Source: Trueperaceae bacterium (GTDB lineage Bacteria; Deinococcota; Deinococci; Deinococcales; Trueperaceae). From it: 64,000 bases of DNA. The notes below the pieces were generated by a model, which made no database searches, was not told the origin of the DNA, and was given only the letters and a program-made list of their open reading frames with translations. How positions within the stretch are numbered: the first letter of the stretch is position 1; the number at the start of each line of letters is the position of its first letter. Shown here in pieces: positions 1,881 to 38,465 of the stretch. The DNA lies in NCBI GenBank assembly GCA_965213925.1, contig OZ243927.1, positions 32,001 to 96,000 of the forward strand. The letters are read 5' to 3'. The translations under genes were made by a program, and so were the position numbers.

Positions 1881-2027
1881 GGTCTAGCCTTACGTTCTGG
1901 TACGTGAAGTGCTGAAACCTTTGAACCTCATGAGAGGTTGGGCGCGGTGAAGCGCCGGAAGTTGAGATTATGGTACGCGAATCTTTGAGGAGATGCAGTG
2001 TGGGGTTTCACGTGGAGGACGTTTCAG

Positions 2028-2438
2028 CTAACTCAACAGATTTATGAAGTCTCGCGCTGTTACGATAGAAACACCTTCAACACGCGCTAAGGCGAGCAAA
2101 TCCCCTTTATCACCGGAAACGATGTACTGCGCGTCTCCTGTAAGAGCCACCGCGATAATGGGATTATCGTCTGGGTCGGGCGAGTAGTCCACCTTTGGTA
2201 GCTCGCGGAGCATCACACCTCGCTTTCTGAGGTGATTTATTAGCGCACCAACCTGATATGGCTTGAGGAGCGGAGCCAGGTGATCGTAACGACTCACAGC
2301 CTTAATCTCTTCAATTTGCCATTCAGAGATGACGAGGTCGAAGGCTCTATCTACTCACAGGTCGAGCGCTTTATAAGGATAGCCTCTATCGGAAATTAGA
2401 GCGGAGATGAAGATACCAGTGTCGAGGACAACCCGCAT
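2028..2438 (-). pseudogene. PIN-domain toxin with in-frame TGA at codon 28
   Basis: ATG 2438 MRVVLDTGIFISALIS...ALDL*VDRAFDLVISEWQIEE...DPDDNPIIAVALTGDAQYIVSGDKGDLL; stop at 2355-2357. Confidence 0.85.
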
Positions 2439-2672
2439 TTAGCGGTTGCGCTGGCTACGGCGGTGTTCCCTGACCACATCTTCGACCATTGCTTCGATCT
2501 CTTCCGGGTCAAGGTGAGCGTTACGCTGGTGCGCCTCTTGCAACGCTTGTCGGAACAAGAAGTCAGCGATGGCTTCTTCTGCCACCTCGGACATTGCCTC
2601 CTTCTGCAACCCTCTTTCCGTAAGATATGCTTCTAAGGACTGCTCAGTCTCTTTGCTCAGTTCAATTGTCAT
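2439..2672 (-). CDS. Putative antitoxin (RHH/CopG-like) of the PIN toxin
   Basis: 77 aa MTIELSKETEQSL...; stop abuts the PIN toxin ATG (TAAATG). Confidence 0.7.
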   Translation of the reverse strand: MTIELSKETEQSLEAYLTERGLQKEAMSEVAEEAIADFLFRQALQEAHQRNAHLDPEEIEAMVEDVVREHRRSQRNR

Positions 2673-2725
2673 AGCTTAAGGATAGACGGTTTCAATAGGT
2701 CGGTCAATTGGAGCAGCTAGATAGA

Positions 2726-3538
2726 TTACGTATCTGTTGAAATATCGTCCCACTCTTGGTTCAAATAACCGATAAGCCAATTTAGAGCGTAGTGTCGCTC
2801 ATAAGTAATTCCAGAGTCCAAGTTAGAAGGCGGTTGTTGACCTTTAACTCTCGCATCCACAACCGCCCAATTATAGCGGTAAACCAAATCTGCTTGATCT
2901 AAGATTTCCGAGAATGGGCGTAGCTGCGCATCAGCAGTGAATTCCTCAGCAGTTCGAGACCACATATAGCGAACAGCTTGACCCGCATCAGCAATTGAAT
3001 CAGCGTCAGGCTTACCAAGCTCGTCAGCATATCCGAGTGCCCATAGCAACGTCCAAGCGGACTCATATCGCCAAGTGAAGTTCACTGAATCTTGCTTCGG
3101 AGGATCAGGATTGTTGATGTAATTTTTTTCTGACGGCGTAAAATGCGTCTCGAGCTGATACTTCTCAATGACCTGCTCAATGACTTCTTGGGGTAAAGGG
3201 TCGCCCTGCGAGTGACTTTCGCCTTTTACAGCGACGACCAATAGAGCTAAGCAGCGATAGGCAATTTCCTCTACTGGACGCGGTGCAGTGTTGCTTTCAG
3301 CTTCGATAACTGGCAACCAATTATTAACGGGCACACCTTGAGCTTTCAAAATCTTTTCTGAACGGACTTTTCTGTCTGAGGCTCCCTGCATATCCTTTGA
3401 TACCATCTGGCTGACCGTAAAATTTTCACTCTTGTCGGCTGCTACTTGACTGAAAGCCACGAAAGCTAGAGGTAAAAGCAGCGAAATAGGTACAAGAGCA
3501 AATCTGAATAGAATATTGGTATCAACGACGACGCGCAT
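2726..3538 (-). CDS. DUF4272-family protein with signal-peptide-like segment, N-terminus taken from a PIN toxin
   Basis: WRYESAWTLLWALG, ERHYALNWL, WDDISTDT; first 10 aa MRVVVDTNIL are a PIN start. Confidence 0.75.
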   Translation of the reverse strand: MRVVVDTNILFRFALVPISLLLPLAFVAFSQVAADKSENFTVSQMVSKDMQGASDRKVRSEKILKAQGVPVNNWLPVIEAESNTAPRPVEEIAYRCLALLVVAVKGESHSQGDPLPQEVIEQVIEKYQLETHFTPSEKNYINNPDPPKQDSVNFTWRYESAWTLLWALGYADELGKPDADSIADAGQAVRYMWSRTAEEFTADAQLRPFSEILDQADLVYRYNWAVVDARVKGQQPPSNLDSGITYERHYALNWLIGYLNQEWDDISTDT

Positions 3539-3746
3539 TTAGCACAGCTTCGTCGATAAGCCTCATGAGTTGGTCTTGGTCTTCGCCTTTGTTGCGCTCT
3601 TTAATGACGCTCACCATCTCAATGAAAACTTGAGTCAGGTCACCCTCTTGCTGCTCTAAAACGTCCATCTGTGCTGCTAATCGCTCGAGCATAGTTTCAT
3701 CGTAGCCCGCCATACGCTGCTGCAACTTCTGCTGTAATTCCTCAGA
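3522..3746 (-). pseudogene. 5'-truncated antitoxin similar to 2439-2672
   Basis: Frame reads SEELQQKLQQRM...LIDEAVLNARRR*, overlapping the PIN-like ATG at 3538; no clear start of its own. Confidence 0.5.
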
Positions 3747-4218
3747 CGCCTACATCTTGAGAAAAGACGACGAAGGAAAAAGCGTCCTCCAAGCCGCAGC
3801 GTTCTGGGTAACTGTTACCGTTCGAGATAAGCCCACAAGGTAGATGTTGATTCAGAAATTTCAGCGTGGGTTTAACGTCTCCATAAAGCTCGATATCTTC
3901 GAAGCGGTGTTTGAGATAGAGCGCGTTGAGGCGAGCAGCGAGGTTTGCGTCGTCCACGCCTATAGATTTGAGCGTTTGAACGAAGGCTTGCAGACGTATG
4001 TGCTCGAGATTCGTCACTTCACCCCTCAACGACTCAGCGACCTCGTTACGAATACGAATCATATCCTCGATGGTCATTTGAGCGGCTGAGACCTCTTTTT
4101 TCAGGTAGGCGAGCACTTTAGATAGAGCGTGACGCATCACCTTCTCAAAATCCCAAAGGGTCATATCGCCGTCGAATGAGATGGCTTGGCATTGTTGTAT
4201 TTTAGCTAAATTACTCAT
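3742..4218 (-). pseudogene. HAD-family hydrolase, C-terminally truncated
   Basis: Motif I FDGDMTLWD and motif II ISNGN present; stops at FSQDVGV just before the expected KP and GD motifs. Confidence 0.7.
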
Positions 4219-4325
4219 AAGTATTTTACCTTCGCTTATGGCTTCTCTTTTCGGTATTGGCTCGAGGCTTGTAAGAGGTAACTTTCGAAATAGAAGTTTT
4301 ACCTTTGCTCATAGCTTCTCCTCTG

Positions 4326-5006
4326 TCAGTAAAACTGACACGACCAGCGCCATTCACCCGAAGAATCTTTGAAGAAATAGCCGATACCGTTATCAGCCCA
4401 CATCCACTGAGCTTTTTCTTCGCTGCCCACTTGAAAAATAAATTCTTCGATACCTACGCCGTGCTGAACCTCTCGAGGATAACCGCCTACTTTAGTTTGA
4501 TGGTATCTGTTGAATTCCATATAGAAAGCTTCCGATGCTCTCTCATCATTGTTGACATCTGTTAAATCAACGATGTCCCAGGCATCTTCCCACCCCGGTG
4601 CATCATCACTCACAAAATTCCACCTGATAGGAAATGGTCTAACGGGTGACGAGTCAACTTCAGGTAAAGGCCCGAGTCCATCTGTAGAACTGTATTCGCG
4701 AATGAGCCAGCCCTCACCATGAGGGTTGTCGAAGGGATAGTCGTCTCTTTGAAGAAACAGAACGAGTAGCGCAACCTCTTCAAGCGCAGGGGGAGTATAT
4801 GGCAAATCAGAAACTCTGATTTGCAAAAGGGGAAATAACGGTTCACTTTTGTAAACAGGCAAACCCTCATCTGGTTTACAGACACCTCGCCCAAACCAAG
4901 AGGTTGTAGGGTCATCTGATGGGCGAAATCCACCAACTTGGGCAACAGACGCTTTCCTAAGTTTTTGCCTCAGCAAATCAAGAGTTTCCTTAGCTTCTAG
5001 TGTCAT
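4326..5006 (-). CDS. DUF1963/YwqG-family protein
   Basis: PLFPLLQI, TKVGGYP, WMWADNGIGYFF, WSCQFY. Confidence 0.7.
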   Translation of the reverse strand: MTLEAKETLDLLRQKLRKASVAQVGGFRPSDDPTTSWFGRGVCKPDEGLPVYKSEPLFPLLQIRVSDLPYTPPALEEVALLVLFLQRDDYPFDNPHGEGWLIREYSSTDGLGPLPEVDSSPVRPFPIRWNFVSDDAPGWEDAWDIVDLTDVNNDERASEAFYMEFNRYHQTKVGGYPREVQHGVGIEEFIFQVGSEEKAQWMWADNGIGYFFKDSSGEWRWSCQFY

Positions 5007-10538: not shown

Positions 10539-11525
<987 letters not shown>

Positions 11526-11793
11526 AGGCTCCCTAAATATCTCAACAGATGAGTATTGGCGCTCGAGGCTTATCAAACGCGACGACTAATCAGTACAGGT
11601 CAGCGACGCGTCAATGCTAAAAGCATAAACATTCTCGGCGCTAAGCTGTGTAATCGGTGGTCGAAAGGACGATGAGGGAATGAGGAAGAGCGACGCCACC
11701 TTTCCTCAATCTCTCCGCTGCGCCGTCTCCACATCCCCCACCGCCCGGAACGCAATCTGTAGCAGGGCTACCGCAAGTCACGTCAGTCGCAGC

Positions 11794-12116: not shown

Positions 12117-12189
12117 GGGCGATTAGCTCAGTTGGAAGAGCGCCTCCCTTACAAGGAGGATGTCGGCGGTTCGAGCCCGTCATCGCCCA
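12117..12189 (+). tRNA. tRNA-Val(TAC), CCA not encoded; integration target
   Basis: GGGCGAT...ATCGCCC-A; anticodon arm CCTCC-CTTACAA-GGAGG. Confidence 0.96.
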
Positions 12190-12214
12190 CTCAAAAAAGA
12201 GCGTCAGAGACGCA
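12147..12214 (+). repeat. attL (3' half of tRNA-Val plus downstream bases)
   Basis: CCTTACAAGGAGGATGTCGGCGGTTCGAGCCCGTCATCGCCCACTCAAAAA exact 51 bp, extending to GCGTCAGAGACGCA. Confidence 0.93.
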
Positions 12215-12216
12215 GT

Positions 12217-12254
12217 AACCGGAGTAGTCAAAGAAGCTACTCCGGTTCTCTTTT
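12217..12254 (+). terminator. Element-supplied terminator after tRNA-Val
   Basis: AACCGGAGTAG / CTACTCCGGTT 11-bp stem followed by CTCTTTT. Confidence 0.65.
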
Positions 12255-12298
12255 GGCAAATGGCTGCTTAACGGCTGCTACGGATAGCAAGGCTAGAT

Positions 12299-13717
12299 AT
12301 GTCTAGCTCGCTACCATCACACAGCACAGATAAAAACTTCTTTGAAGTCGAACGCCCCTTAGAGGGTTTCAAGACAGGTATCACGCATGACGAGTGGCTC
12401 GAGCGCGTCAAGCAGTCGTTTGGCGTAGATGATGCAGGGTGGCAAACGCTCATAGAACGTAGCAGGGACACGCCTTCCCCCTTGTTACCTTCTAGGAACA
12501 ATTCAAAGCCAGCCCAAAAGCAGCCTGACCCCTGGACGGAACGCCCCGCGTTCCGCTTCCCCCGCGCTTATGTCCAAGCGTGCGGCAAAGGCACGTTGGG
12601 TCTCAAGTACGAGTCTGGGCGCATCGCCTTCAGTGCCCTTTCCTGTAACTCCTGGAGTTGCCCGTCATGCCGCCCCGCAAAATCAGCGGGATTGTTAGAT
12701 CGCCTGAGACGTGGTTTAGAATCGCGCCCCGATAGCAACCTCGGTCTAGTCACACCGACGCTTGACCCGGCACGCTTCGGCGGCGTTTGCGTGGGTACGG
12801 GCTACTACACCCAAGAAGGTCAGCCCTGGCAACCCTACGCCACGAATAAAACGCAGTTGGACACGCTGTTACGGTCAGGTCAGATACGCGCCGCGAAGAT
12901 GTACGCCGCGCCTACCCCTACGCAGTACGAACGCGCTTATAGAGCGATGAGTAAAGAAATCAACCGTCTCCTCTCTCGACTTCGCCATATTTGTAAAAAA
13001 CTCAACCTGCCTATGTTCGGTTATTTTCGCGTGGTGGAGTTGCACCGCAACGGATGGCCGCACTATCATTTAATCTTTCAACATCCAACGCTGACGGTTG
13101 ACGACGTTGCTACACAGCTTGAGGGATGGTCACTAGGGAGAATTCACTTCGAAGTGATTGAGGCTGACTTTGAGAACGGTAAGAGCGCTATTGATGTCGC
13201 TGTGGGTGAGGTTGCGCCCTACCTCGTAACCTCTGAAAGCTCGCACAAGGCGTACCAGTTTGCAGCGGACGCGCTACCCGCTAACTTTCGCTTGTGGACA
13301 TGCTCACGCGGCTTTCTAGCCGATGCACAGCCCTCCGAGTCAGAAGACCCTGTAGTGCAAGGTATCGCGCTTAAAGGGCACTTCACAGACTATCAGCGGA
13401 TGTACGAGCAGCACATGGTTTCGCGTGAACCGCTCAGCACGTCGTTAGAGCTTGTCCATGTTAAAAAAGGAACGGTGCGCGTTATACCCCCTCAACACAG
13501 ATACAGTGTTACAGCGCTCCCAGACGCGAAAAAACCGAATCAGCCTGTACGTGCAATTTCACATGTCTACCTCAAAGGAGACGACGCGCCTTTGTTCTTT
13601 GCGAACTTGGTTCACGCTGAAACGTTGCACGTGCCGCCGAAGTGGATTGCGCCTGATGGGAAGTTTAGCCAAGAGGACAGATACAAGTTTTTTAAGCTAT
13701 TAGTACGCCGTAGTTAG
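12299..13717 (+). CDS. Rolling-circle replication initiator (HUH endonuclease) with CxxxxCxxC motif
   Basis: CNSWSCPSC; motif 1-like LVTPTLDP; motif 2 VVELHRNGWPHYHLI; motif 3-like APYLV. Confidence 0.8.
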   Translation: MSSSLPSHSTDKNFFEVERPLEGFKTGITHDEWLERVKQSFGVDDAGWQTLIERSRDTPSPLLPSRNNSKPAQKQPDPWTERPAFRFPRAYVQACGKGTLGLKYESGRIAFSALSCNSWSCPSCRPAKSAGLLDRLRRGLESRPDSNLGLVTPTLDPARFGGVCVGTGYYTQEGQPWQPYATNKTQLDTLLRSGQIRAAKMYAAPTPTQYERAYRAMSKEINRLLSRLRHICKKLNLPMFGYFRVVELHRNGWPHYHLIFQHPTLTVDDVATQLEGWSLGRIHFEVIEADFENGKSAIDVAVGEVAPYLVTSESSHKAYQFAADALPANFRLWTCSRGFLADAQPSESEDPVVQGIALKGHFTDYQRMYEQHMVSREPLSTSLELVHVKKGTVRVIPPQHRYSVTALPDAKKPNQPVRAISHVYLKGDDAPLFFANLVHAETLHVPPKWIAPDGKFSQEDRYKFFKLLVRRS

Positions 13718-13751
13718 CTCGCATCAGGTATTGCTTGTGCAGCTTATCCGC

Positions 13752-13785
13752 TTGACAATTATAGGACACAACATTATTGTTGTGT
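13752..13785 (+). promoter_or_regulatory. Leaderless promoter with overlapping palindromic operator
   Basis: TTGACA(13752)-17-TATTGT(13775)-6 nt-ATG; perfect ACACAACA-TTAT-TGTTGTGT at 13766-13785. Confidence 0.75.
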
Positions 13786-13786
13786 T

Positions 13787-14347
13787 ATGATACCTCTTTT
13801 TGAAGCCAATGGGAATCTTCCACCGGGGCTTCATGAAGCTACTTGGCAAGAATTTACTTCGAGGTTTGGAGAAACTAAGCACAGGAGGGAGTTGCTTAAA
13901 GGTCTATATATCGCATTAAAAGCTTTGAAGTTGGCAGGATGTAAGCACGCCTATATAGATGGAAGCTTTACTACTACGAAAGCAGTGCCAGACTTTGATG
14001 GTTGTTGGGATGAGGAAGGAGTCAATGTAGAACTACTATTTGCCACGGAACCCGCTCTTCTTCAGTTTGACAATAAAAGGGCGGCACAGAAAGCAAGATT
14101 GCCAGACGACTTTGATGGTTGTTGGGATGAGGAAGGAGTCAATGTAGAACTACTATTTGCCACGGAACCCGCTCTTCTTCAGTTTGACAATAAAAGGGCG
14201 GCACAGAAAGCAAGATTCGGGGGTGAACTTTTTCCCTCTGGATTTCCCGCCGATAAACAACAGAGAACATTTCTTCAGTTCTTTCAGATAGATAGGGATG
14301 GTAATCCGAAGGGAATTATAGTTCTCGCATTGGAGAGCTTGCCATGA
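13787..14347 (+). CDS. DUF6932-like putative nucleotidyltransferase with internal tandem duplication
   Basis: GNLPPGLH, YIDGSFTTTK..PxDFD, FFQIDRDGNPKGII; GS...DxD nucleotidyltransferase signature. Confidence 0.75.
   Translation: MIPLFEANGNLPPGLHEATWQEFTSRFGETKHRRELLKGLYIALKALKLAGCKHAYIDGSFTTTKAVPDFDGCWDEEGVNVELLFATEPALLQFDNKRAAQKARLPDDFDGCWDEEGVNVELLFATEPALLQFDNKRAAQKARFGGELFPSGFPADKQQRTFLQFFQIDRDGNPKGIIVLALESLP
13991..14217 (+). repeat. 110-bp exact tandem duplication (13991-14100 and 14108-14217)
   Basis: GACTTTGATGGTTGTTGGG...GAAAGCAAGATT occurs twice; frame preserved. Confidence 0.95.
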
Positions 14348-15801
14348 TCAAGAATGAGCGACAATACAAGATCACAAAGAATCAAGCAGAGCGTTTTCAA
14401 GCTGCTTTAGAAGACTTAACTCGCACTCAAAATAAAGCGGACATTCACCCTATTCTACTCAAAGCTCAACAAGAGTCTTTAAGTAGTCAATTGGATGATC
14501 TCCTCGAGGAGATTGAAGAATACGAAGCTTTGCAAAGTGGTCACTACTCAGTTGTTGAACTAACCTCGCTAGAAAACTTCGCTCTTGCATTGATTCAAGC
14601 TCGTATAGCTGCAGGACTCACTCAGAATGACCTTGCTGCAAAATTGGGAATGAGAGAGCAGCAAATTCAAAGATATGAAGCAACGGAATATGCATCAGCG
14701 AGCCTTGCTGTCATACAAAAAGTGATTGATGCATTGGGAATAAGTATTCGAGAGGATATATTCTTACCAGGTGTCGATGTATCCCTCAAAAAGTTGTTCA
14801 GCCGATTAAGCAGTATTGGTATTGATCGCGAGTTCGCAACTAAAAGGCTTATACCAACTTCTATCGATCCTGACTTAGAAGAGTACGATGGAAGTCAGGT
14901 AGCTCTACAAATTGCAGCTAATGTGAACCGTGTCTTCGGTATTAGCGCTTCCCAAATCTTTGGAGATAGCACTTTGTTGCTTCCTAGTACGCCCTTAGTA
15001 GCTGCTCGTTTCAAAAAGTCGGAAGTAGTTAATGAGAATCGATTACATGCGTTTACGGTATATGCGCATTACATTGCGGCATTAGTTTTTGATGCCGTAC
15101 AACATCTACCGAAGAGAGCTATTCCCAATGAAGCTGATTTTGTTAGAGAAGCCATTCTGTCAACTGAGGGTACTATTTCTTTTGAAAGCGCTTTGAAGTA
15201 CGCATGGAGTTTAGGTATAGCAGTGATTCCTCTAGCTGACGCAGGGGCTTTTCATGGAGCATTCTGGCGCATAAGGGGGCGTAATTTGATCATACTAAAG
15301 CAACGAAATCAATCACAGGTCAGATGGCTCTTTGACCTTCTCCACGAGATGTATCACGCTGCTCAAGAACCTGAAGCTGAAGAAAGAATGATCATCGAAG
15401 AGGAAGAAATCACGCACTCTGAAGGGGGTTCGGATGATTTCAGCGATTCCGAATGGGAAGAGGTTGAAGCAAGCGATTTTGCAGATGATGTTGTGCTTGC
15501 TGGTATAGCGGATGATCTTGCTAAGCGTGCAGTTGAGCGAGCTAACGGTAGAACTGAGCGCTTGAAAGCTGTTGTGCCTCAAATTGCAGAGGAGGCAAAT
15601 GTACCCGTTGATTCTTTGGCTAATTACATTGCTTATCGTCTATCCCTACAAGGTATGGATTGGTGGGGTGCTGCCACGAATCTTCAGCAAATTGAGCCGC
15701 AGCCTTGGGAGATCGCACGAGAGTTTTTGATAGCGAATGTAGACCTCTCAAAAATTAACCCCATTGATCAAAAACTGCTTATGCAGGCTATAAGTTATTA
15801 G
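14344..15801 (+). CDS. XRE-HTH regulator fused to ImmA/IrrE (M78) metallopeptidase domain
   Basis: ARIAAGLTQNDLAAKLGMREQQIQRYE HTH; FDLLHEMYH (HExxH) and EVEASDFA; ATGA overlap. Confidence 0.85.
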   Translation: MIKNERQYKITKNQAERFQAALEDLTRTQNKADIHPILLKAQQESLSSQLDDLLEEIEEYEALQSGHYSVVELTSLENFALALIQARIAAGLTQNDLAAKLGMREQQIQRYEATEYASASLAVIQKVIDALGISIREDIFLPGVDVSLKKLFSRLSSIGIDREFATKRLIPTSIDPDLEEYDGSQVALQIAANVNRVFGISASQIFGDSTLLLPSTPLVAARFKKSEVVNENRLHAFTVYAHYIAALVFDAVQHLPKRAIPNEADFVREAILSTEGTISFESALKYAWSLGIAVIPLADAGAFHGAFWRIRGRNLIILKQRNQSQVRWLFDLLHEMYHAAQEPEAEERMIIEEEEITHSEGGSDDFSDSEWEEVEASDFADDVVLAGIADDLAKRAVERANGRTERLKAVVPQIAEEANVPVDSLANYIAYRLSLQGMDWWGAATNLQQIEPQPWEIAREFLIANVDLSKINPIDQKLLMQAISY

Positions 15802-15810
15802 GAGTTTACA

Positions 15811-16434
15811 ATGACAAAGCAAAGGCGTAAGAAAAGCGACCTTGAACCCCTGAAAATTTCTTGTACTAGTTCGAATTGCGATGAAGATTTACATTGCTTC
15901 AAAGCTACTAGACGAATGAAATTGGACGATGAAATAGGCATGTGTCGTTCTTGTGGCGTTGATCTTGTAGAGTGGGATCGCTTGAATGAGCGTAACTTAA
16001 ATGATGTCGCATATACTTTCGAAGCGTTGAGGAGAGAGCTTATAAGACATTTCTTTTGGCATGTGGATATAGATCAGAAGGCTATAAACTACGCCCGTCG
16101 TAAAGGTAAAAAAGGGATGAAAGAAGCCGTTCGCAAACGCATAGAAAGCTCAGTTGGTCCAGAGCAACCTTATCGCGACGGAACTCAAACTAAAATGCAA
16201 GATTGTGGCAACCCAATTCACTATGCACAACATGCAACCGCCTCGTGCTGTCGCACTTGCATCGAGTACTGGCATGGGATACCAAAAGGGCGTGAATTAA
16301 GTGGAGAAGAAGTAGAATACCTGTCTCAGTTAGTCATCTTGTATGTAAACGAAAGACTACCTTTTCTTTCTGAAAACGGAGAGAAGGTAGCGCCGATTCG
16401 TAAACCAAAACAGAAGGAATTGAGTGCTAAGTAA
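15811..16434 (+). CDS. DUF4186-family protein with Cys-rich N-terminal extension
   Basis: DGTQT, NPIHYAQHATASCCRTCIEYWHGIPKGRELS; N-terminal CTSSNC-HC-CRSC; AGGAG SD. Confidence 0.75.
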   Translation: MTKQRRKKSDLEPLKISCTSSNCDEDLHCFKATRRMKLDDEIGMCRSCGVDLVEWDRLNERNLNDVAYTFEALRRELIRHFFWHVDIDQKAINYARRKGKKGMKEAVRKRIESSVGPEQPYRDGTQTKMQDCGNPIHYAQHATASCCRTCIEYWHGIPKGRELSGEEVEYLSQLVILYVNERLPFLSENGEKVAPIRKPKQKELSAK

Positions 16435-17460
16435 ATGGGTTCAGCAAAAGCTATAAATACTGAGTCTGTATCTGCAAGTTATCGCTCAAAAGCTATCGAT
16501 TTAACAAATAAACGAATACTCATCACCAATTTCTTAGACACAGAACAGGAAAAAGACCTTACAACCCCGCCAAACTGTAACGGTTTTGGAAGAATAAGAC
16601 ATTTCCGCCGCCAGACAAGCGATGGTTGGCCTGTCAACCCGCTTCCTATAGACCCGGCGAGTAAGGCTCTAGGCTTATCGCATAGCGATATGATTAGGGC
16701 TCAGGTTTTCCAGAATGCTGTTTGCAATTGGAGATGTTTTTACTGCTTCGTCCCCTTCAGTCTGCTTTCGGCTAATTCTAAGTATTCAGACTGGCTTTCT
16801 GCGTCCGAACTGATGGGTCTCTATCTCGAGCAAAGCACTCCACCATCAATTATTGATCTCACTGGTGGACAACCCGATTTAGTACCCGAGTGGCTTGTAT
16901 GGATGATGCAAGAAATTACTGATCGTAAACTTGAGGAGAAAGTATATCTTTGGTCAGACGATAATCTCAGCACCGACTACTTTTGGAAATACCTTTCGAG
17001 TCGCGAGATTGATCTGATTCAGAACTATGAAGCTTATGGTCGCGTATGCTGCTTCAAAGGTTTCAATGAGTCTTCGTTTGCCTTCAATACACTGGCTGAG
17101 CCTAGCTTATTCTTCCAACAGTTTGAATTGATGAAAAGGCTGCTTTCGCTAAACCTTGATTTGTACTGTTACGTCACCTTCACCACACCTTCTCCCAAAT
17201 ATATCGAACGCGATATGAGTGATTTTATTGATCGGTTGCAAGAACTTGACGAACAGCTACCTTTGAGAACAATTCCTCTCGAAATACAAGTATTTACACC
17301 CGTAGAAAAACGCCTCAAAGATATTCATAGAACGGCGCTGGACAATCAACAAATTGCTGTGCGAGCTTGGCAGGCTGAGTTAGAGCAACGTTTTTCTCAG
17401 GAGGAACGCACACTCAACATAACAGCTATCAAGCTTAGGTCTAGGCAAAGATATAGTTAA
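16435..17460 (+). CDS. Radical SAM protein
   Basis: CNWRCFYC (CxxxCxxC), LTGGQPDL (GGEP-like); TAAATG coupling. Confidence 0.9.
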   Translation: MGSAKAINTESVSASYRSKAIDLTNKRILITNFLDTEQEKDLTTPPNCNGFGRIRHFRRQTSDGWPVNPLPIDPASKALGLSHSDMIRAQVFQNAVCNWRCFYCFVPFSLLSANSKYSDWLSASELMGLYLEQSTPPSIIDLTGGQPDLVPEWLVWMMQEITDRKLEEKVYLWSDDNLSTDYFWKYLSSREIDLIQNYEAYGRVCCFKGFNESSFAFNTLAEPSLFFQQFELMKRLLSLNLDLYCYVTFTTPSPKYIERDMSDFIDRLQELDEQLPLRTIPLEIQVFTPVEKRLKDIHRTALDNQQIAVRAWQAELEQRFSQEERTLNITAIKLRSRQRYS

Positions 17461-17480
17461 TGCTTTACTTAGAATAGCTT

Positions 17481-18011
17481 ATGATCAATCCTTCAGTCGA
17501 GCTTTATACGAAGCTCAAGAAAGCTGTATCAGGTGATGTCAAGTGGGAACATCGTATAGAAGCCCTGTCCCATCTCTACAATAGTGGAAATTCCACCCTT
17601 CACATTGCAATATTTATTGAGCCATTTCTTCAATTTGTACTTGATGGAACAAAAACATTGGAGTCACGTTTTTCGGTAAATAAACAAGCACCGTACTTAA
17701 CCTTAAATAGATACGATATCGTTTTAGTAAAACGGTCTGGAGGACCAATCGTAGCCATATCGTATGTAGAAGATGTTTGGTACTACGAACTAGACCCTTC
17801 TACCTGGAATACTATAAAAGATGATTTTTCTGTTCCTTTATGTATAAACAACACCTCTTTCTGGGATCAGAAATCTGCATCACAGTATGCAACTTTGATG
17901 CGGTTAGTCGATGTATTCCCTATTTCACCTATCGAATATAAGAAGCGTGATCAGCGAGGATGGGTAATTGTTGATTTAGAGCCTGTACAAGCGTATATGC
18001 TAGAGCTATGA
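17481..18011 (+). CDS. ASCH/PUA-domain protein
   Basis: HIAIFIEPFLQFVLDGTKTLESRFS (GxKxxExR). Confidence 0.75.
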   Translation: MINPSVELYTKLKKAVSGDVKWEHRIEALSHLYNSGNSTLHIAIFIEPFLQFVLDGTKTLESRFSVNKQAPYLTLNRYDIVLVKRSGGPIVAISYVEDVWYYELDPSTWNTIKDDFSVPLCINNTSFWDQKSASQYATLMRLVDVFPISPIEYKKRDQRGWVIVDLEPVQAYMLEL

Positions 18012-18565
18012 GCACTGTAGTAGTGAGTTTTGCTGGAGCAATAGCAAGCGGAAAAACGACGCTGACAGTAGAAGTGGCGCGGCTACTTAACTGCAAACGA
18101 GTAAGCTTTGGGGATCAAGTTCGTGCTATTGCATTGAAGTGCGGTAAAGAGCCCTCACGCGAAAATCTGCAAGCGATTGGCGAACAGCTAGTAACATACG
18201 ATATTGAGAATTTTTGCCGCGCAGTTCTCAAGCAAGGAGTATGGAAGCCAGGTCGATCTTTAGTAGTTGACGGTATCCGCCATAAAGAAGTACTAGATAC
18301 ATTGAAGATGATAGTCGCTCCGGCAAAGTTGGTACTGGTGTTTATTGATGTAAACCAAAGTACCCTTAGAGAACGTATTGAAGATAGAGCGCTATCAAAT
18401 AGAGAAATTGATGATATCCGACAGCACTCTACAGAAGTACAAGTAAGAAATGTTCTCCCTCTTGTAGCAGACCTTACGCTAGACGGTCGTAAATCGGTTG
18501 ACAAGTTGTCCAAAGAAGTAGTCGACTGGCTTTCTATGTACTCAATTCGAAACAATAAAATCTGA
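18008..18565 (+). CDS. P-loop nucleoside-monophosphate/dephospho-CoA kinase-like protein
   Basis: FAGAIASGKTT, SFGDQVR, VVDGIRH, HSTE; ATGA overlap. Confidence 0.8.
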   Translation: MSTVVVSFAGAIASGKTTLTVEVARLLNCKRVSFGDQVRAIALKCGKEPSRENLQAIGEQLVTYDIENFCRAVLKQGVWKPGRSLVVDGIRHKEVLDTLKMIVAPAKLVLVFIDVNQSTLRERIEDRALSNREIDDIRQHSTEVQVRNVLPLVADLTLDGRKSVDKLSKEVVDWLSMYSIRNNKI

Positions 18566-18632
18566 GCAACCCAATACAACATGCCGATTACATACCCTTT
18601 TTATATTGGAAGTGGAGATAGATATTCGATTT

Positions 18633-19415
18633 TCAGGCAATCTTCCACACCTCATCAACCGCTCGAGTCACATCCACCGTAAAATGAGATCGTCTTTTGG
18701 TATCGTGAATGTTACGTAGCGGGTTTATCTCAATCACTTCATCAATATGGTGCATCGCCCAAGCTTCTGCGATAAGCCTCTCGAGTAACGGCACTTTGCG
18801 CGGCATACCCTGAGTACCGCCAAGAATAGTGTTAGAACTTACCTCTCGCTTTTCGTGAAAGTAGTCTTTGTAGTCGATAAATATGCCTGATGCTCTGAGC
18901 GCCCGCTCAACATCTATAACCTCATGCTTGCTCGTAAACTTATCAAGCTCGTTGATTTTGTACCAAAAGTTTCCTAGTGCTGTCATTTCGAGTTTTCTTG
19001 GTTTTTCTTGTTCCTTGAGCAATCCCAAAAGCGTCCACATTTGCTCATACGCGCTTTTCTTTCGCTCTTCAAGCTCTCTTTTAGGAACATTAAGCCCAGC
19101 TAGGTCGTAAGCAGGGTAAATCGTAAAGGTAACGGGTCTTTCCCAGCACTTAGCAAGAATTTCTAAAGTACTAGGTCTATGCTGTAGATAACGATAGGCT
19201 ACAGCACCCTCACGAAGTTTGCGCTTCTCTTGACGTGTGATAATCGCTAGTACGTAAAGGGCGAACGCTTCATCTAGGGTGAAGCTACCTCTCTGACCAT
19301 AGTTTCCCGGCGAGCTTGGCGGCGGGACGTAACCCCTATTCCACCAGCTATAAATAGTAACCGCCGGAGTCTCGAGAAGCCTCTCCAACTCATCGCGGTC
19401 TATACGCTTCTCCAC
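18633..19415 (-). CDS. Putative element repressor with MerR-like N-terminal HTH
   Basis: DELERLLETPAVTIYSWWNRGYVPP; divergent from the xis-int operon. Confidence 0.6.
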   Translation of the reverse strand: MEKRIDRDELERLLETPAVTIYSWWNRGYVPPPSSPGNYGQRGSFTLDEAFALYVLAIITRQEKRKLREGAVAYRYLQHRPSTLEILAKCWERPVTFTIYPAYDLAGLNVPKRELEERKKSAYEQMWTLLGLLKEQEKPRKLEMTALGNFWYKINELDKFTSKHEVIDVERALRASGIFIDYKDYFHEKREVSSNTILGGTQGMPRKVPLLERLIAEAWAMHHIDEVIEINPLRNIHDTKRRSHFTVDVTRAVDEVWKIA

Positions 19416-19520
19416 GCCACACTTTACCTGTTACAATGTGAAATTCTTTACCCTAGATAGTATCTTGCGATTTACTACAAGGTAAGATAAGCTGTAACCA
19501 CCCGATAGGAGGTGGTAACG

Positions 19521-19790
19521 CTGTCTACTAAACTGGCACGCATAAGAAGCGAAACTCACCAGCAAGTTACGGAGCTTGCTGAAAGGGAGGGCGTTTCGTT
19601 CGCTGATGCTTTAGAACAGCTTGTGAGGCGCGAAGGCGAAACAGCCGATGCGACCCCGCCAGAGTCCAAAGCGAACGGTCCCATTGAATACGAGGAGCTA
19701 CCACAAGACGAAGAAAGCTCTTCTTTCGGCTCTATCGCAGTAGCGGTTATTGGAGGGCTTATAGGATTAACCCTACTGACACGACGCTAG
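19521..19790 (+). CDS. Small RHH-like protein with C-terminal transmembrane helix (probable CTG start; track GTG 19512)
   Basis: STKLARIRSETHQQVTELAEREGVSFADALEQL; C-terminal IAVAVIGGLIGLTLL; AGGAGG 8 nt before CTG. Confidence 0.55.
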   Translation: MSTKLARIRSETHQQVTELAEREGVSFADALEQLVRREGETADATPPESKANGPIEYEELPQDEESSSFGSIAVAVIGGLIGLTLLTRR

Positions 19791-19914
19791 ACCAAAAGTA
19801 AAAAAGCCCGGATGCCACCGGACTTTCTACCGAGTCACCGCGCGGTTACGCAGACTCTTTGCTTCCTAGCTATAGAGTAACACAAATTGCGTGGTGAATT
19901 CGAAAGGATTTGTC

Positions 19915-20070
19915 ATGCAATTTTTCATAGAGAGATTTCCTAAGCATTATCGCTTTCGTGTTCGTAACTTGCTCTTTGCCATGAAGCATGGTTTACCCGC
20001 GTGTAAGCGTTGGGCAAGAAGCGAACTAAAGCAACTAATAGACGACGCAAATTCAAGGCGTACTAGATGA
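19915..20070 (+). CDS. 51-aa basic protein (below ORF-track cutoff)
   Basis: GAAAGGA SD; MQFFIERFPKHYRFRVRNLLFAMKHGLPACKRWARSELKQLIDDANSRRTR; ATGA overlap with xis. Confidence 0.6.
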   Translation: MQFFIERFPKHYRFRVRNLLFAMKHGLPACKRWARSELKQLIDDANSRRTR

Positions 20071-20294
20071 GTACTTCGGCGGCGAAGCTGGAAAACTCAG
20101 ATAAACTCGAGCGTGAAGCCTACACCGTTGCTGAAGTGTCGCAAATGTTCGGCATGTCCTGTAACGCGATCTACGCTTACGTTCGTGCCGGGGACATTCC
20201 CCATAAGCGTCTCGGAAACCGCATCCTCATCCCTAAAAAGCTCTTCCACGCATGGTTAAACAGCGCTGACGCTTGGGAATCCTCCAATGGGTGA
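20067..20294 (+). CDS. xis: Excisionase / HTH_17 DNA-binding protein
   Basis: AYTVAEVSQMFGMSCNAIYAYVRAGDIPHKRLGNRILIPK; directly before integrase. Confidence 0.85.
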   Translation: MSTSAAKLENSDKLEREAYTVAEVSQMFGMSCNAIYAYVRAGDIPHKRLGNRILIPKKLFHAWLNSADAWESSNG

Positions 20295-21438
20295 GGGTAA
20301 GCGCAAGAAGAAGCGAAGTAGGGGTAACGGAGAGGGCTCAATCTACCAACTTGAAAACGGTACTTGGCGGGGACACGTTACGCGCGGTTACAACGATAAA
20401 GGTCGGCAAATCAAGAAGTGGTTTAGAGGACGCACGCGGCGTGATGTAGCCAAACAGCTTAACCAGTACCTGATGCGTTCGGGCTCACGCCTTATCTCTA
20501 TGCCTGAGAAGGTCACGGTACGTGAATGGCTCGAGCGCTACGCTTTGGAGAAAGAAGTCAAGGAGAAGACACGCGAAAGCTATCACTGGATTATACACAA
20601 TCACGTCTTTCCTGTGCTCGGAGAGATGCAGCTTTCCAAGGTGACACCGCTTCATCTCAGACAGTTTCACGCCGCACTGACAGAAAAAGAGCTTTCGGCG
20701 GACTATCGGCGCAAAATCTACTACTTCCTCAATGGAGCGTTTAGAACTGCGTTGCGCGTCGAATTGATAGAGCGTAACCCCGTCAAAGCGTTAGACCCGC
20801 CAAAATCCGCACCGCCGAAAGAAACGCCGATGTGGACGGCAAAAGAAGCGGCGGCGTTTATGAAGCATGTCAAAGAGGAACGACTATACAACGCTTACTA
20901 CATCATGCTCGCTTTAGGGTTGCGTGCTGGAGAGTGTTTCGGGCTCATGTGGGATGACCTCGAGGGCGACGCGCTTCACATAAGAAGAACGCTTACAGTT
21001 GTGAGGCACGAACTTTCTCTCGAGGCACCGAAAACGCCTAGCTCACTTCGAACGCTCTACCTATCGCCCGATCAGATTGAAATTTTTAGGTGTCAGCGTG
21101 AACAACAGAGGCTCGAGCGCAGCACCGCGAAGAGGTGGATGAAGAGCAATTTAATTTTCACTTCAAACGTAGGAACGCCGCTCAGCTTTCGTAACGTCCG
21201 CCGACGCCTTGACCAACTGACAGACCGCGCGGCGGTGACGAGGATAGGGTTACACGGTTTTAGACACACCTACGCGACGTTAGCGTTACTCAGTGGTCTA
21301 CCGCTGAAGGTTGTTTCAGAACGCTTAGGTCATAGCGACATCCGCGTTACCTCACGCATCTATGAGCACATCCACGACAAGCAGCGCCGCGCCGCCGCGC
21401 TGTCGTTGGATGAACTTCTCGAGGAGGTTGAAAAATGA
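20287..21438 (+). CDS. int: Tyrosine integrase
   Basis: RGNGEGSIYQ arm-binding N-terminus; GLRAGE, PKT, HGFRHT, LGHSD, Y catalytic residues intact. Confidence 0.96.
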   Translation: MGEGKRKKKRSRGNGEGSIYQLENGTWRGHVTRGYNDKGRQIKKWFRGRTRRDVAKQLNQYLMRSGSRLISMPEKVTVREWLERYALEKEVKEKTRESYHWIIHNHVFPVLGEMQLSKVTPLHLRQFHAALTEKELSADYRRKIYYFLNGAFRTALRVELIERNPVKALDPPKSAPPKETPMWTAKEAAAFMKHVKEERLYNAYYIMLALGLRAGECFGLMWDDLEGDALHIRRTLTVVRHELSLEAPKTPSSLRTLYLSPDQIEIFRCQREQQRLERSTAKRWMKSNLIFTSNVGTPLSFRNVRRRLDQLTDRAAVTRIGLHGFRHTYATLALLSGLPLKVVSERLGHSDIRVTSRIYEHIHDKQRRAAALSLDELLEEVEK

Positions 21439-21483
21439 ATTTGACATACGCTGTTACTGGCTGCTTCGTGGCTGCTACGGAAA

Positions 21484-21543
21484 CCCGAAAGACCTGTGAA
21501 GAGGGCAACGCGCCCCTTCACTCCTCTTCACAGGTCTTTCGGG
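21484..21543. repeat. Perfect 21-bp inverted repeat with 18-nt loop
   Basis: CCCGAAAGACCTGTGAAGAGG / CCTCTTCACAGGTCTTTCGGG. Confidence 0.9.
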
Positions 21544-21604
21544 AAAGCTGTGCAGCACGGGAAAACGTCATCACTTTATGCTTACTGGTAAAAGGGAGCG
21601 AGAA

Positions 21605-21672
21605 CCTTACAAGGAGGATGTCGGCGGTTCGAGCCCGTCATCGCCCACTCAAAAATAAGCGTCAGAGACGCA
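21605..21672 (+). repeat. attR (duplicate 3' half of tRNA-Val)
   Basis: Copy of 12147-12214 with 2 mismatches. Confidence 0.93.
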
Positions 21673-22162: not shown

Positions 22163-22555
22163 ATGGATATACGGATACGCTTAGGAGATTACTTAGATGA
22201 GCACGACATCACCCCTTACCGCTTAGCAGCGCAGGCTGAAGGCAAAGCCGCAAAAGGCACGATCTACTCACTGTCTCGAGGTGACGTTAAACGCCTCGAT
22301 CTTGCAACTTTGTCCACTGTGATAGCTGCTTTGGAGGAGCTGACCGGGAAAAGCGTCGAAATCACCGACCTTTTGGAAAAGGTGCAGCCGCGTGAAGCAG
22401 GTATGAGTGCGGCGGGCGTGCCCTACACGGGAGACCCGGAGACCGACGCGGTACTCGACGACCACCCCGACATCTTAGAGCGCATCAAGCGCGTGGAGAC
22501 GGGAAAAGAGGGCAGTCGTCCGCTTAGCGAGGTCATGGCGGAGCTGGGGCTCTGA
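22163..22555 (+). CDS. Cro/C1-type HTH protein with antitoxin-like C-terminal tail
   Basis: IRLGDYLDEHDITPYRLA...RLDLATLSTVIAAL HTH; tail DILERIKRV...RPLSEVMAELGL; TTGTCA-17-TAAGAT-6 nt-ATG promoter. Confidence 0.75.
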   Translation: MDIRIRLGDYLDEHDITPYRLAAQAEGKAAKGTIYSLSRGDVKRLDLATLSTVIAALEELTGKSVEITDLLEKVQPREAGMSAAGVPYTGDPETDAVLDDHPDILERIKRVETGKEGSRPLSEVMAELGL

Positions 22556-22854
22556 CGTACACCGTCAAGCTCAGTGACAGCGCGGCGGCGGACTTGCGGC
22601 GCATCAAGGATAGGCGCACGCAGAAAGCCATTGCGAACGGCTTAGAGCGGCTCGAGACGGAGCCCGCGAAGCGTGGCAAGGAGCTAAAAAAAGACCTACA
22701 GGGCTACTACAGCATCCGCTTAGCGGGGCAGCGCTACCGGGCGATCTATAGCGTCGTCGTGAGTGAGGGCGAGGTAGAGGTGTTGGTTATCGGTATTAGG
22801 AAAGAGAGGGACAAGCGCGATGTTTACGAAGTCGGGAAGAAGCGTCTTCGCTGA
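22552..22854 (+). CDS. RelE/ParE-family toxin (probable CTG start in CTGA overlap)
   Basis: (M)TYTVKLSDSAAADLRRI...GKELKKDLQGYYSIRLAGQRYRAIY...IGIRK. Confidence 0.8.
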   Translation: MTYTVKLSDSAAADLRRIKDRRTQKAIANGLERLETEPAKRGKELKKDLQGYYSIRLAGQRYRAIYSVVVSEGEVEVLVIGIRKERDKRDVYEVGKKRLR

Positions 22855-22867
22855 GGAGGTGCAAAAT

Positions 22868-23113
22868 ATGACTGTGAACGACTACATGAGGCTCGAGTAC
22901 CCTCACGAGGTCATCTCTTTACCCGCCGACGAGGGTGGCAGTGTATACGTTCGCTGTCCTGACTTCGGCGCAGCAGCGGCGCAGGGCGACGGGGCGACCT
23001 TAGAGGCAGCGCTCGCCGAGGCGAACGAAGCGAAGCGCCTTACTATTGAGGTCTTGTTAGAGGACGGTCGGGATGTAGAGCCACTGCTGATCAGCAGTGG
23101 CTCTGTGCGTTAG
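22868..23113 (+). CDS. HicB-like antitoxin (orphan)
   Basis: DEGGSVYVRCPDF...GDGATLEAALAEANEAK; GAGGAGG SD. Confidence 0.7.
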   Translation: MTVNDYMRLEYPHEVISLPADEGGSVYVRCPDFGAAAAQGDGATLEAALAEANEAKRLTIEVLLEDGRDVEPLLISSGSVR

Positions 23114-23329
23114 CGCGGTTACAACCCTACAACCACAGCGTCAACCGAGGTCGTCTGGCCCAACTCTATTCTTGTAGCCTTTGCATCAATTATTGACACA
23201 CTGAGAGCGTTGCTTCGCAAAACTGCGTACACCATTGGTACAAAGCTTCGCGTCCGCGTGGTCGCGTCCCGCTAGCGACTTCGTGAACGCATCCGCTCGG
23301 GGGTCTTTAACAGGTGTGGCAAAGACCCC

Positions 23330-23573
23330 TGCAAATACTATTGGTTAAAAAGCTTGTCAGGCTTGCGGCGCTGCTTACCCTTTGCTCACCGGAAAGGTGC
23401 GCGTATACATCCACCATGAAGCCCACCTTCGCGTGACCTGAGGGTCCGCCAGCACTTTTGGGTCCATGCCCTCTCGGATGGCGAGCGAAGCGTGGAGGTG
23501 GTGCAGACCATGTAGACGAGCACGAGGCACCCCTGCTTCGACGTTGCTTGCCTCTTGCCAAATAGTGCGTCAA
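23330..23573 (-). pseudogene. Tyrosine integrase C-terminal relic (frameshifted)
   Basis: EAGVPRARLHGLHHLHASLAIREGMDPKVLAD, frameshift, then GHAKVGFMVDVYAHL; HxxR has become HGLH. Confidence 0.75.
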
Positions 23574-34365: not shown

Positions 34366-34421
34366 CGCTCCTCATTCTAATTCAAACCGCGGCGGATTCA
34401 CTATCAAAGTCTCGGAGTTTT

Positions 34422-34598
34422 TTGATAACGATAACAATTTACTATCGCGGCAAATACTTTGTCAATGTACAAGAGAGTTAATATTAAGGGACAGTGTATA
34501 TACCTTGCATTCGTAAAATCGCCCAGTTTAGATTTCGTTAAGGGCTCTCAACTTGACAAACGCTCGATTATTTGGCTTAATACTGTTAGCGTTATCAA
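34422..34598. promoter_or_regulatory. Two LacI-type operators at divergent promoters
   Basis: TTGATAACGATAACA (34422-34436) and TGTTAGCGTTATCAA (34584-34598), 14/15 identical as inverted copies, central CG; TTGACA boxes on both strands. Confidence 0.7.
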
Positions 34599-34676
34599 TT
34601 TGTAGGCATTCGACGAGCTTATAGGTATGTCACCTCTGTCACGCTTTGTCTTAGCAAAGTCTCGTCAACAGAAAGG

Positions 34677-37768: not shown

Positions 37769-37815
37769 AGGTTTATTCGGTCTCGTCTGCCTACCCATAG
37801 AGGAGGAAAGCCAGC

Positions 37816-38412: not shown

Positions 38413-38465
38413 CGCCGCTTTGAGATCGGTATACGTTCCGATAAACTCGCTGAAGAGGTAAACTT

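Follow-up and report, generated by a model that had tools for sequence, protein, structure and literature searches.

In the CapH/CapP, ImmR/ImmA and DdrO/IrrE switches, an M78 peptidase relieves repression by a helix-turn-helix (HTH) protein upon a signal, and the activity by which viperins are recognized among radical S-adenosylmethionine (SAM) enzymes is the production of 3'-deoxy-3',4'-didehydro-NTP chain terminators. Here, we describe a six-gene cluster that encodes both a protein with an HTH and an M78-type peptidase motif and a radical SAM protein. It lies at positions 13752-18565 of a 64,000-nucleotide stretch of a Trueperaceae bacterium (assembly GCA_965213925.1, contig OZ243927.1, positions 32,001 to 96,000 of the forward strand), which we call the window throughout. 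Comparison with related loci leaves little doubt that the cluster belongs to a real, conserved system. It appears to be a reduced, six-gene copy of an undescribed and horizontally mobile cassette, whose most likely function, judging from its gene content and surroundings, is that of an inducible defence operon using nucleotide chemistry.

The cluster had been singled out as six co-oriented genes with coupled or very short junctions, and every one of these open reading frames (ORFs) and junctions was found at its predicted position. All six lie on the + strand, spanning 13787-18565, with one promoter and one palindrome ahead of them. Gene 1 (N; 13787-14347, 186 aa) encodes a DUF6932 protein (Pfam PF22014) and meets gene 2 in an ATGA overlap at 14344. 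Gene 2 (H; 14344-15801, 485 aa) encodes an XRE-type HTH protein with an ImmA/IrrE-type (M78) peptidase motif, and is separated by a 9-nt gap (15802-15810), where an AGGAG motif overlaps the TAG stop, from gene 3 (D; 15811-16434, 207 aa), which combines a zinc-ribbon-like segment with DUF4186. The TAA stop of D is followed immediately by the ATG (16432-16437) of gene 4 (R; 16435-17460, 341 aa), the radical SAM gene, and a 20-nt gap (17461-17480) leads to gene 5 (A; 17481-18011, 176 aa), which encodes an ASCH/PUA-like protein. A second ATGA overlap, at 18008, joins A to gene 6 (K; 18008-18565, 185 aa), encoding a P-loop protein resembling nucleoside monophosphate (NMP) kinases. The cluster is AT-rich, as originally noted, with 40-44% G+C against 55-64% in most other 1-kb segments of the window, and all six proteins retain the invariant motifs of their families.

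We aligned 3,249 proteins related to R (E ≤ 0.001) and searched one genome for each species (185,579 species genomes) with this alignment, which gave 268 candidate stretches, of which 182 encode an R relative. With R as the anchor gene, the counts of loci given below refer to the best 80 of these 182 relatives unless stated. By tblastn, H and D were each found in 77 of the 80 loci, A in 68, K in 66 and N in 57; several of the missing genes fall at contig ends. Gene order and strand are almost always as in the window, so that the scattering of homologues without conserved order, which would have argued against the original prediction of a linked gene set, did not occur. The hosts span at least 15 phyla, among them Cyanobacteriota, Chloroflexota, Acidobacteriota, Planctomycetota, Bacteroidota, Actinomycetota, Pseudomonadota, Bacillota and Verrucomicrobiota, and include one Thaumarchaeota metagenome-assembled genome (MAG). 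Across these phyla the window R is 49-68% identical to its relatives, and in a quick tree of R it stands isolated, with a best identity of 68%. R also occurs on seven plasmids, of which six are conjugative, and a plasmid insertion from Tolypothrix is listed, by gene names alone, in PMC9679502.

The claim of a six-gene system held as to a conserved unit and not as to the number of genes, since the commonest form has seven. In most loci an extra 1.3 kb between R and A (for example L003:9002-10303 and L081:10005-11306) encodes a protein of ~430 aa, here called M. It combines a winged-helix-like (wHTH) region at the N-terminus with an invariant D-P-P-W-Y motif, and its C-terminal domain (S-V-S-R-R-D...W-T-S-G-N-R) is conserved. 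Found in 62-66 of the 80 loci, M weakly matches the N6-adenine methylase family PF10237 (5.6e-4), the PADLOC mad2 model (3.8e-4), the HI0767 methylase and METTL3. The order NHDRMAK is the most frequent (38 of 80), followed by HDRMAK (7), the window's own NHDRAK (4) and NHDRK (3), and in several further loci R(M)AK is split off with H-D on the opposite strand. The window lacks this wHTH-DPPW methyltransferase-like gene altogether, and no remnant of it was found anywhere in the 64 kb by tblastn (E > 4). Forms without M that keep intact A and K also occur in unrelated lineages (L027, L041, L067 and L048). On the R tree, M-less rows are scattered and unclustered, with 16 label changes, at least nine of which are forced by supported branches.

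Fusions tie the cassette genes together in other lineages. D is joined to R in L001 and P0122 (the latter 50% identical to the window R), H to D in P0121 (30% identical to the window H over 489 residues), D to A in L031 and L053, and A to K in L035. A fused ORF can be an error of a draft assembly, but it is unlikely that all five different joins are. In the division of labour originally proposed, the kinase, the radical SAM protein and the nucleotidyltransferase would make a modified nucleotide, and ASCH and DUF4186 would read it. The fusion of D, in different lineages, to the repressor, the radical SAM protein and the ASCH protein points instead to D as a hub or adaptor, and not merely as a reader. 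In the flanks of the 80 loci no further family is recurrent, so the cassette is self-contained. On a plasmid of Rhizobium sp. WYJ-E13, a DUF763 gene (L082:10327-11589) runs in the same direction as the kinase gene and overlaps its end; it may be a lineage-specific eighth member.

The single promoter with a palindromic operator that had been proposed for the cluster is there. A sigma-70-like promoter (13752-13780, + strand) consists of TTGACA at 13752-13757, a 17-nt spacer and TATTGT at 13775-13780, and it overlaps a perfect 8+8 palindrome, ACACAACA-TTAT-TGTTGTGT (13766-13785), that ends 1 nt before the start codon. It is thus plausible that the transcript starts at or adjacent to the ATG at 13787 and is leaderless. 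A generic promoter scan of the region found 8 sites against 11.2 expected, which is not above chance; what sets the window site apart is its conservation in relatives. The 80 related loci, 1,188,426 bp in total, contain 47 matches to the strict pattern CACAA-N5-10-TTGTG, every one of them at most 120 nt upstream of an N start. The pattern occurs in 43 of the 57 loci with N and in none of the 23 without it, most of the 14 remaining N loci having one-mismatch versions, and its only match in the 64-kb window is the one at the operon. Across phyla the consensus is ACACAAC-N-GTTGTGT, which is also present in one archaeal MAG locus.

The geometry of the promoter is shared as well. Among 58 N-led cassettes (the 57 loci and the window), 34 have at most 8 nt between the operator and the start codon, and TTGAC lies 35-40 nt upstream of the start in 31, at exactly 35 nt, as in the window, in 17; just three have a Shine-Dalgarno-like motif. 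These shared features suggest that a leaderless promoter with an overlapping operator belongs to the mobile unit itself. Since the operator travels with the cassette and the HTH of H is highly conserved, it is quite probable that H represses the operon and thereby its own gene. Six cyanobacterial loci (L001, L002 and L009-L012) have two tandem operators ~30 nt apart upstream of the DUF6932 gene instead of one.

H carries an XRE-type HTH at residues about 80-137 (HTH_3, E 6e-11), a peptidase motif HEMYH at residues 334-338 and a further C-terminal domain. HTH_3 was detected in 36 of 36 H sequences and H334, E335 and H338 are invariant in all of them; Peptidase_M78 (PF06114) was detected in 23 of the 36 (best E 5.5e-9) and not in the window H itself at E ≤ 0.1. 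The peptidase region of the window protein matches PADLOC RmrA (E 6.7e-8, the best of several RmrA models) and NCBIfam spr1629 (6e-7), and the protein matches PADLOC capH (E 1e-5), while PADLOC M63B gave no listed match to gene 2 at E ≤ 0.01. By domain content, then, gene 2 encodes a regulator with an XRE HTH and an M78 peptidase that we predict to be an autorepressor. Such a protein, together with a conserved operator, fits the stress- or infection-induced expression that had been suggested for the cluster.

The labels originally given to genes 2, 3, 4 and 6 all stood, on the strength of HTH_3 with HExxH, PF13811, CxxxCxxC and an NMP-kinase-like P-loop, respectively. D matches DUF4186 (PF13811) at E 2.5e-28 and 98.7 bits against a cutoff of 25. 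Its N-terminal segment is a Cys/His, zinc-ribbon-like region; C18, C23, H28, C45, C48 and C146 are invariant, and a motif H-A-T-A-x-C-C-R-x-C is conserved. An AlphaFold2 (AF2) model of D (15811-16431; pLDDT 91) had no fold match in the PDB at E ≤ 0.001 by Foldseek (best TM about 0.2), and a PDB profile search gave no meaningful match. The lone structural neighbour of the model is an uncharacterized Pithovirus protein (BFVD, E 1.4e-5, TM 0.49, 25% identity over 131 columns), which gives no hint of function. DUF4186 is also found fused to AraC-type regulators in Streptomyces, and the E. coli DUF4186 protein, YneG, is placed in a glutaminase and succinic-semialdehyde operon in PMC9283627.

R has the cluster motif C97-x3-C101-x2-C104, invariant in 34 sequences, preceded by a conserved N-terminal extension of ~90 aa and accompanied by two further invariant cysteines, C48 and C206. 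The window copy scores 22 bits against Pfam Radical_SAM, under the cutoff of 29.5, and a PDB profile search returned just CteB (E 0.005). Its AF2 model (pLDDT 83) gave 17 Foldseek matches at E ≤ 0.001, with a probability of 1.00 to the pyruvate formate-lyase activating enzyme (PFL-AE), QueE, SkfB and SuiB. The top-ranked folds are PFL-AE, QueE and SkfB, with maturases of ribosomally synthesized and post-translationally modified peptides also among them, and viperins rank 30th and lower, all at a TM of about 0.4. Together, sequence motif and modelled fold identify R as a member of the radical SAM superfamily. Three more specific assignments were rejected. The viperin model NCBIfam NF038283 scores 17.6 bits against a cutoff of 180 and matches residues 95-161 alone; a glycyl-radical activase would be expected beside a glycyl-radical enzyme, of which there is none nearby; and no other 7-deazaguanine gene accompanies R, as would be expected of QueE. 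PADLOC pVip likewise matches R over model positions 8-65 of 257 (E 2.3e-4).

For gene 5 the original ASCH label stood through its orthologues and not through the window protein, in which no Pfam family, ASCH included, was detected. A contains D-G-T-K-T-L-E-S-R-F, an instance of GxKxxExR, which we take to be the ASCH signature motif; K58 and R63 are invariant in 35 sequences and G56 and E61 nearly so. The Tolypothrix orthologue matches ASCH (PF04266) at E 3.9e-5 and 24.7 bits against a cutoff of 21.2, and RefSeq names the orthologues ASCH. The protein has an N-terminal helical extension, and its resemblance to the ASCH proteins 2z0t and 5y7d in the PDB is weak (E about 0.7). Gene 5 is thus supported, through orthologues, as encoding an ASCH-domain protein.

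K matches AAA_18 (E 3.5e-12) and has the P-loop G-A-I-A-S-G-K-T, in which G10, G15 and K16 of the Walker A motif are invariant in the family. Its profile matches archaeal AdkA-like proteins (3lw7/3h0k) over positions 4-172, the full length, at E 1e-13, and adenylate kinase 1 at 1e-8, from which we assign an NMP kinase fold. A weak match to VakA, the viperin-associated kinase of PADLOC, was also found (E 1.7e-6), and all curated NCBIfam kinase equivalogs scored far under their cutoffs. ESM Atlas searches with the cluster's proteins returned nothing beyond their own families.

Gene 1 had been labelled a nucleotidyltransferase, a label that its profiles do not bear out. It matches Pfam DUF6932 (E 5.9e-38), which is the sole Pfam match in 33 of 33 family members; no nucleotidyltransferase profile matched, a PDB profile search gave nothing at E ≤ 5, and the 12 longest relatives, drawn from a profile search of 1.84 billion representatives (strong DUF6932 members only), have no second Pfam domain. 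What the family does have is a GS...DxD-like motif: G59-S60 and D110 are invariant and D108 nearly so, giving D-G-S-F...P-x-D-F-D. PADLOC PDC-M63A matches gene 1 at E 3.3e-11 over model positions 11-73 of 152. N was found on 34 plasmids, of which seven carry R, and in the three contexts without the cassette that were inspected it was followed each time by an ImmA/IrrE or XRE/HTH gene, with no D, R, A or K. Because N thus occurs beside an HTH- or ImmA-type neighbour on plasmids without the radical SAM cassette, N and H are more likely a portable front-end module, resembling a toxin-antitoxin pair or regulatory, than a nucleotide-making step.

The window N is longer than its relatives (186 against about 146 aa) through an in-frame tandem duplication on the + strand at 13991-14217, with a period of 117 nt (39 codons) and 100% identity between two 110-nt stretches, 13991-14100 and 14108-14217. 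It repeats the motif-bearing P-D-F-D-G-C-W-D...QKAR segment and is an insertion relative to all 32 other aligned homologues. Either the duplication arose very recently by slippage or it is an artefact of assembly; N may be disabled by it.

The cassettes had been expected near defence genes, and related loci agree with this. Of the 144 ORFs nearest to the cassettes (one per flank, if there was one), a raw count of 30 have PADLOC matches at E ≤ 1e-10 and 18 are transposases, recombinases or conjugation genes. The PADLOC matches include six dGTPases, a prokaryotic Argonaute (pAgo) and its Cas4-like nuclease, three SoFic proteins, Pycsar and CBASS cyclases, two TIR proteins, AbiEi, TerY, WYL and restriction-modification methylases, and at least three of the 30 are probably unrelated to defence (an ABC transporter, RelA/SpoT and TniQ). 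Five further flanking ORFs are dCTP-deaminase-like. In the cyanobacterial loci L004, L005, L006, L007 and L012, a dGTPase-like gene (HD + HD_assoc) lies directly 3' of the kinase gene, and dCTP-deaminase-like genes in varying orientation flank Chloroflexota cassettes (L016, L022, L028, L037 and L053). Both enzymes are nucleotide-depleting defence enzymes. Their presence could be a chance effect of defence islands or could reflect a functional tie to the nucleotide chemistry of the cassette.

We propose that H would bind the operator and hold the operon off, and that an infection or DNA-damage signal would activate its M78 domain and lift repression, as in CapH/CapP, ImmR/ImmA and DdrO/IrrE. 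R and K would form the catalytic core of the enzymes so induced, a minimum suggested by the existence of NHDRK forms; A, and in most relatives M, would extend their chemistry, and D would organize the enzymes as a hub or as a partner of R. The product would be a modified nucleotide, or a modified nucleic acid, that blocks phage or plasmid replication, and N with H would serve as the portable front end, whether toxin-antitoxin-like or regulatory. The parts of this proposal differ in strength. A role in defence is somewhat favoured; chemistry at the level of nucleotides is a fair possibility that falls a little short of even. That the window holds an intact-looking, reduced copy of an undescribed mobile cassette for induced, nucleotide-based defence, taken as a whole, seems to us evenly balanced. 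With M absent and 39 residues of N duplicated, the window copy may differ in its mode of action from the canonical form, or part of its function may be disabled.

Several points weigh against this proposal. The suggestion of a defence role comes from the neighbourhood alone, and the cassette contains no obvious effector such as a nuclease, a pore or an NADase. The likeness of R to viperins does not extend past the generic cluster-binding region, and M (with its wHTH and DPPW motif) and the ASCH protein point at least equally to modification of a DNA or RNA polymer. In the split loci, a scan of the 80 loci with the strict pattern found no operator at the R-M-A-K half, so H need not control those genes everywhere. 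According to PMC12409345, the related two-gene PDC-M63AB conferred no protection in E. coli NILS69. Finally, a copy without M and with a duplicated N may be decaying.

If M, R, K and A were to install and read a base modification while N, H and D policed unmodified nucleic acid, the cassette would be an epigenetic system akin to restriction-modification, and the M-less window copy an orphan or disabled version of it. The regular place of M between R and A (62-66 of 80 loci), its invariant D-P-P-W-Y and its weak matches to PF10237, mad2, the HI0767 methylase and METTL3 fit this explanation, as does the zinc ribbon of D; in addition, PMC7641849 predicts that ASCH/PUA-like domains are readers of modified bases and that pairs of ASCH and AAA_17 recur in predicted base-modifying operons. 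However, M has been lost repeatedly in scattered lineages that keep the rest intact (though some of these 'losses' are contig ends), neither a nuclease nor another restriction component was detected in the cassette, and the full-length resemblance of K is to NMP kinases that act on small molecules, not to polynucleotide kinases. Moreover, 50,697 phage records searched by tblastn yielded no match to R, K, H or N, and thus there is no link to phage hypermodification pathways. We regard this explanation as unlikely. Rather less likely again is that N and H alone form a conflict module, like RosmerTA, PDC-M63AB or ImmR/ImmA, to which D-R-(M)-A-K is attached as a hitch-hiking, non-immune metabolic operon for nucleoside or cofactor salvage or for a small natural product. 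H and D occur together in 77 of 80 loci even when N is absent, H-D, D-R and D-A fusions bridge the supposed halves, and among 48 plasmid matches to D the full-length, zinc-ribbon form is found on exactly the seven cassette plasmids, the other 41 being shorter and YneG-like. The loci also show no transporter, biosynthetic gene or recurrent metabolic neighbour, and their flanks consist of defence and mobile genes. Such an arrangement would nevertheless account for the presence of N on 34 plasmids with R on just seven, for the ImmA/IrrE or XRE/HTH gene next to N in the three contexts without D, R, A and K, for the PADLOC listing of N as PDC-M63A and H as RmrA-like, and for the operon in which YneG is placed (PMC9283627).

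A further explanation concerns the window alone, namely that the cluster is a decaying passenger that arrived recently from a low-G+C donor, lost M, suffered disruption of N and is inactive. The exact 117-bp duplication, absent from all 32 aligned homologues, the want of any trace of M, the contrast of 40-44% with mostly 55-64% G+C and a Trueperaceae-like host whose phylum lies outside the 80 loci are all compatible with decay. Yet the duplication preserves the frame and has two perfect copies, none of the other five ORFs is truncated or lacks an invariant family residue, and translational coupling, promoter and operator are intact, with the modal geometry. Four other loci, from unrelated lineages, also lack M yet have intact A and K, and another public contig (P0001) encodes an R protein 99% identical to that of the window. 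Inactivity of the cluster is therefore, in our view, improbable.

The carrier of the window copy is a 9.5-kb integrative element at a tRNA-Val gene (12138-21672), and the prediction of a tRNA-integrated element was confirmed by its ends and gene content. It is bounded by 77-nt direct repeats that are 92% identical, attL at 12138-12214, which is the 3' part of tRNA-Val, and attR at 21596-21672, and it encodes a rolling-circle-type Rep (12299-13717), an excisionase (xis; 20067-20294) and a tyrosine integrase (int; 20287-21438). The operon lies within the element as predicted and is not quite its only cargo: the element further contains an ORF of 260 aa on the - strand (18633-19415) and two small ORFs that belong to no known family. 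None of the 80 cassette loci contains a relative of Rep, xis, int or the 260-aa ORF; we thus rejected the idea that the cassette is the element's own immunity or excision switch, and the element is a carrier rather than part of the cassette proper. Deinococcota, the probable host phylum, is unrepresented among these loci.

Other features of the window surround this element. A perfect 21-nt inverted repeat with an 18-nt loop (21484-21543) lies past the integrase gene, which ends at 21438, and before attR (21596); it could be a terminator or a recombination-directionality site. Just past attR, at 22163-23573, small ORFs resemble by eye an HTH protein, a RelE/ParE-like toxin and an antitoxin, and on the - strand there is an apparent tyrosine recombinase fragment. 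This group could be left over from a previous insertion at that tRNA gene. A MoxR-family ATPase gene (10539-11576, - strand) encodes a protein 77-80% identical to Trueperaceae and Truepera radiovictrix proteins, which makes Deinococcota the probable phylum of the host. Lower G+C (46-52%) also marks positions 2001-5000, 34001-35000 and 37001-39000, which may be further acquired islands.

Were the cassette a defence system, it would be a widespread new one, found in 182 of about 185,000 species genomes, in at least 15 phyla and on conjugative plasmids. Its core radical SAM protein, lying outside the viperin family, would then imply that radical chemistry leads to antiviral nucleotides or nucleic-acid marks by a second route, and the proposal, if true, would give a first function to DUF4186 (including the relatives of E. 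coli YneG) and to DUF6932. The portable operator, -35 box and leaderless start would aid expression after transfer to distant hosts, which makes repressor, operator and induction signal directly testable. In its boldest form, the proposal is of a pan-phylum immune cassette in which a self-cleaving repressor-peptidase switches on, from the leaderless promoter-operator that travels with the cassette, a radical SAM protein that joins a fold-orphan zinc-ribbon-DUF4186 protein, an NMP-type kinase and an ASCH protein in making a new antiviral nucleotide or, with the DPPW gene, a new DNA or RNA modification; this we hold only tentatively, as rather doubtful. Should the function not be defence, the tight linkage of seven genes and their fusions would still appear to define a nucleotide-related pathway.

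Compared with described systems, the gene set bears no established name. PADLOC-DB of 2023 contained no system that matched it, as had been foreseen, and gave just weak single-gene matches, while RefSeq annotation of the cassette is generic. In the searchable literature, a body that excludes subscription papers, the set is described neither in the reports naming DUF4186 nor in those examined on ASCH, radical SAM and defence, and DUF6932 is not mentioned. Restriction-modification and MADS were rejected for the window, which has no methyltransferase-like gene and whose cassette genes include no nuclease family. Assignment to RosmerTA was also rejected: H matches several RmrA models, over parts of the models only, and no model of the toxin RmrT matched gene 1 or gene 3 at E ≤ 0.01. 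PDC-M63AB is comparable at the front end, in that N partially matches PDC-M63A and a pair of N with an ImmA- or XRE-type gene stands alone on other plasmids; however, PDC-M63AB is a two-gene candidate, whereas in the cassette five further conserved genes accompany the pair. At the other end of the cassette, the adjacency of A and K, which overlap by ATGA in the window and are fused in L035, recalls the conflict-related (PIN)-GNAT-EVE operons, in which an ASCH protein sits next to a small P-loop protein of AAA_17/18 type (PMC7641849). Those operons differ in their partners, since the cassette lacks GNAT, EVE and PIN and has instead the radical SAM protein, DUF4186 and the DPPW methyltransferase-like protein.

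Two described systems share with the cassette a core that uses radical SAM chemistry. Like pVip with VakA, the cassette places a radical SAM gene beside an NMP-kinase-like P-loop gene in defence islands, but R fails the viperin models and its fold fits PFL-AE and QueE at least as well. R further differs from pVip in its ~90-aa N-terminal extension and extra invariant cysteines, and it is always accompanied by H and D; to our knowledge, viperin loci have neither. Ophion is a validated defence system built on a non-viperin radical SAM enzyme and is proposed to interfere with nucleic acids. It is set apart by its description as a three-gene system of Gammaproteobacteria with PHP phosphatase and phosphoribosyltransferase partners, and the radical SAM superfamily is the sole component that it shares with the cassette. 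The regulatory half, finally, resembles CapH/CapP of CBASS, ImmR/ImmA of ICEBs1 and DdrO/IrrE of Deinococcus in its XRE HTH, its M78 HExxH peptidase and a palindromic operator over the promoter. In contrast to these pairs, H unites both activities in one polypeptide of ~485 aa with an additional C-terminal domain, and the operator and leaderless promoter of the cassette travel with it across phyla.

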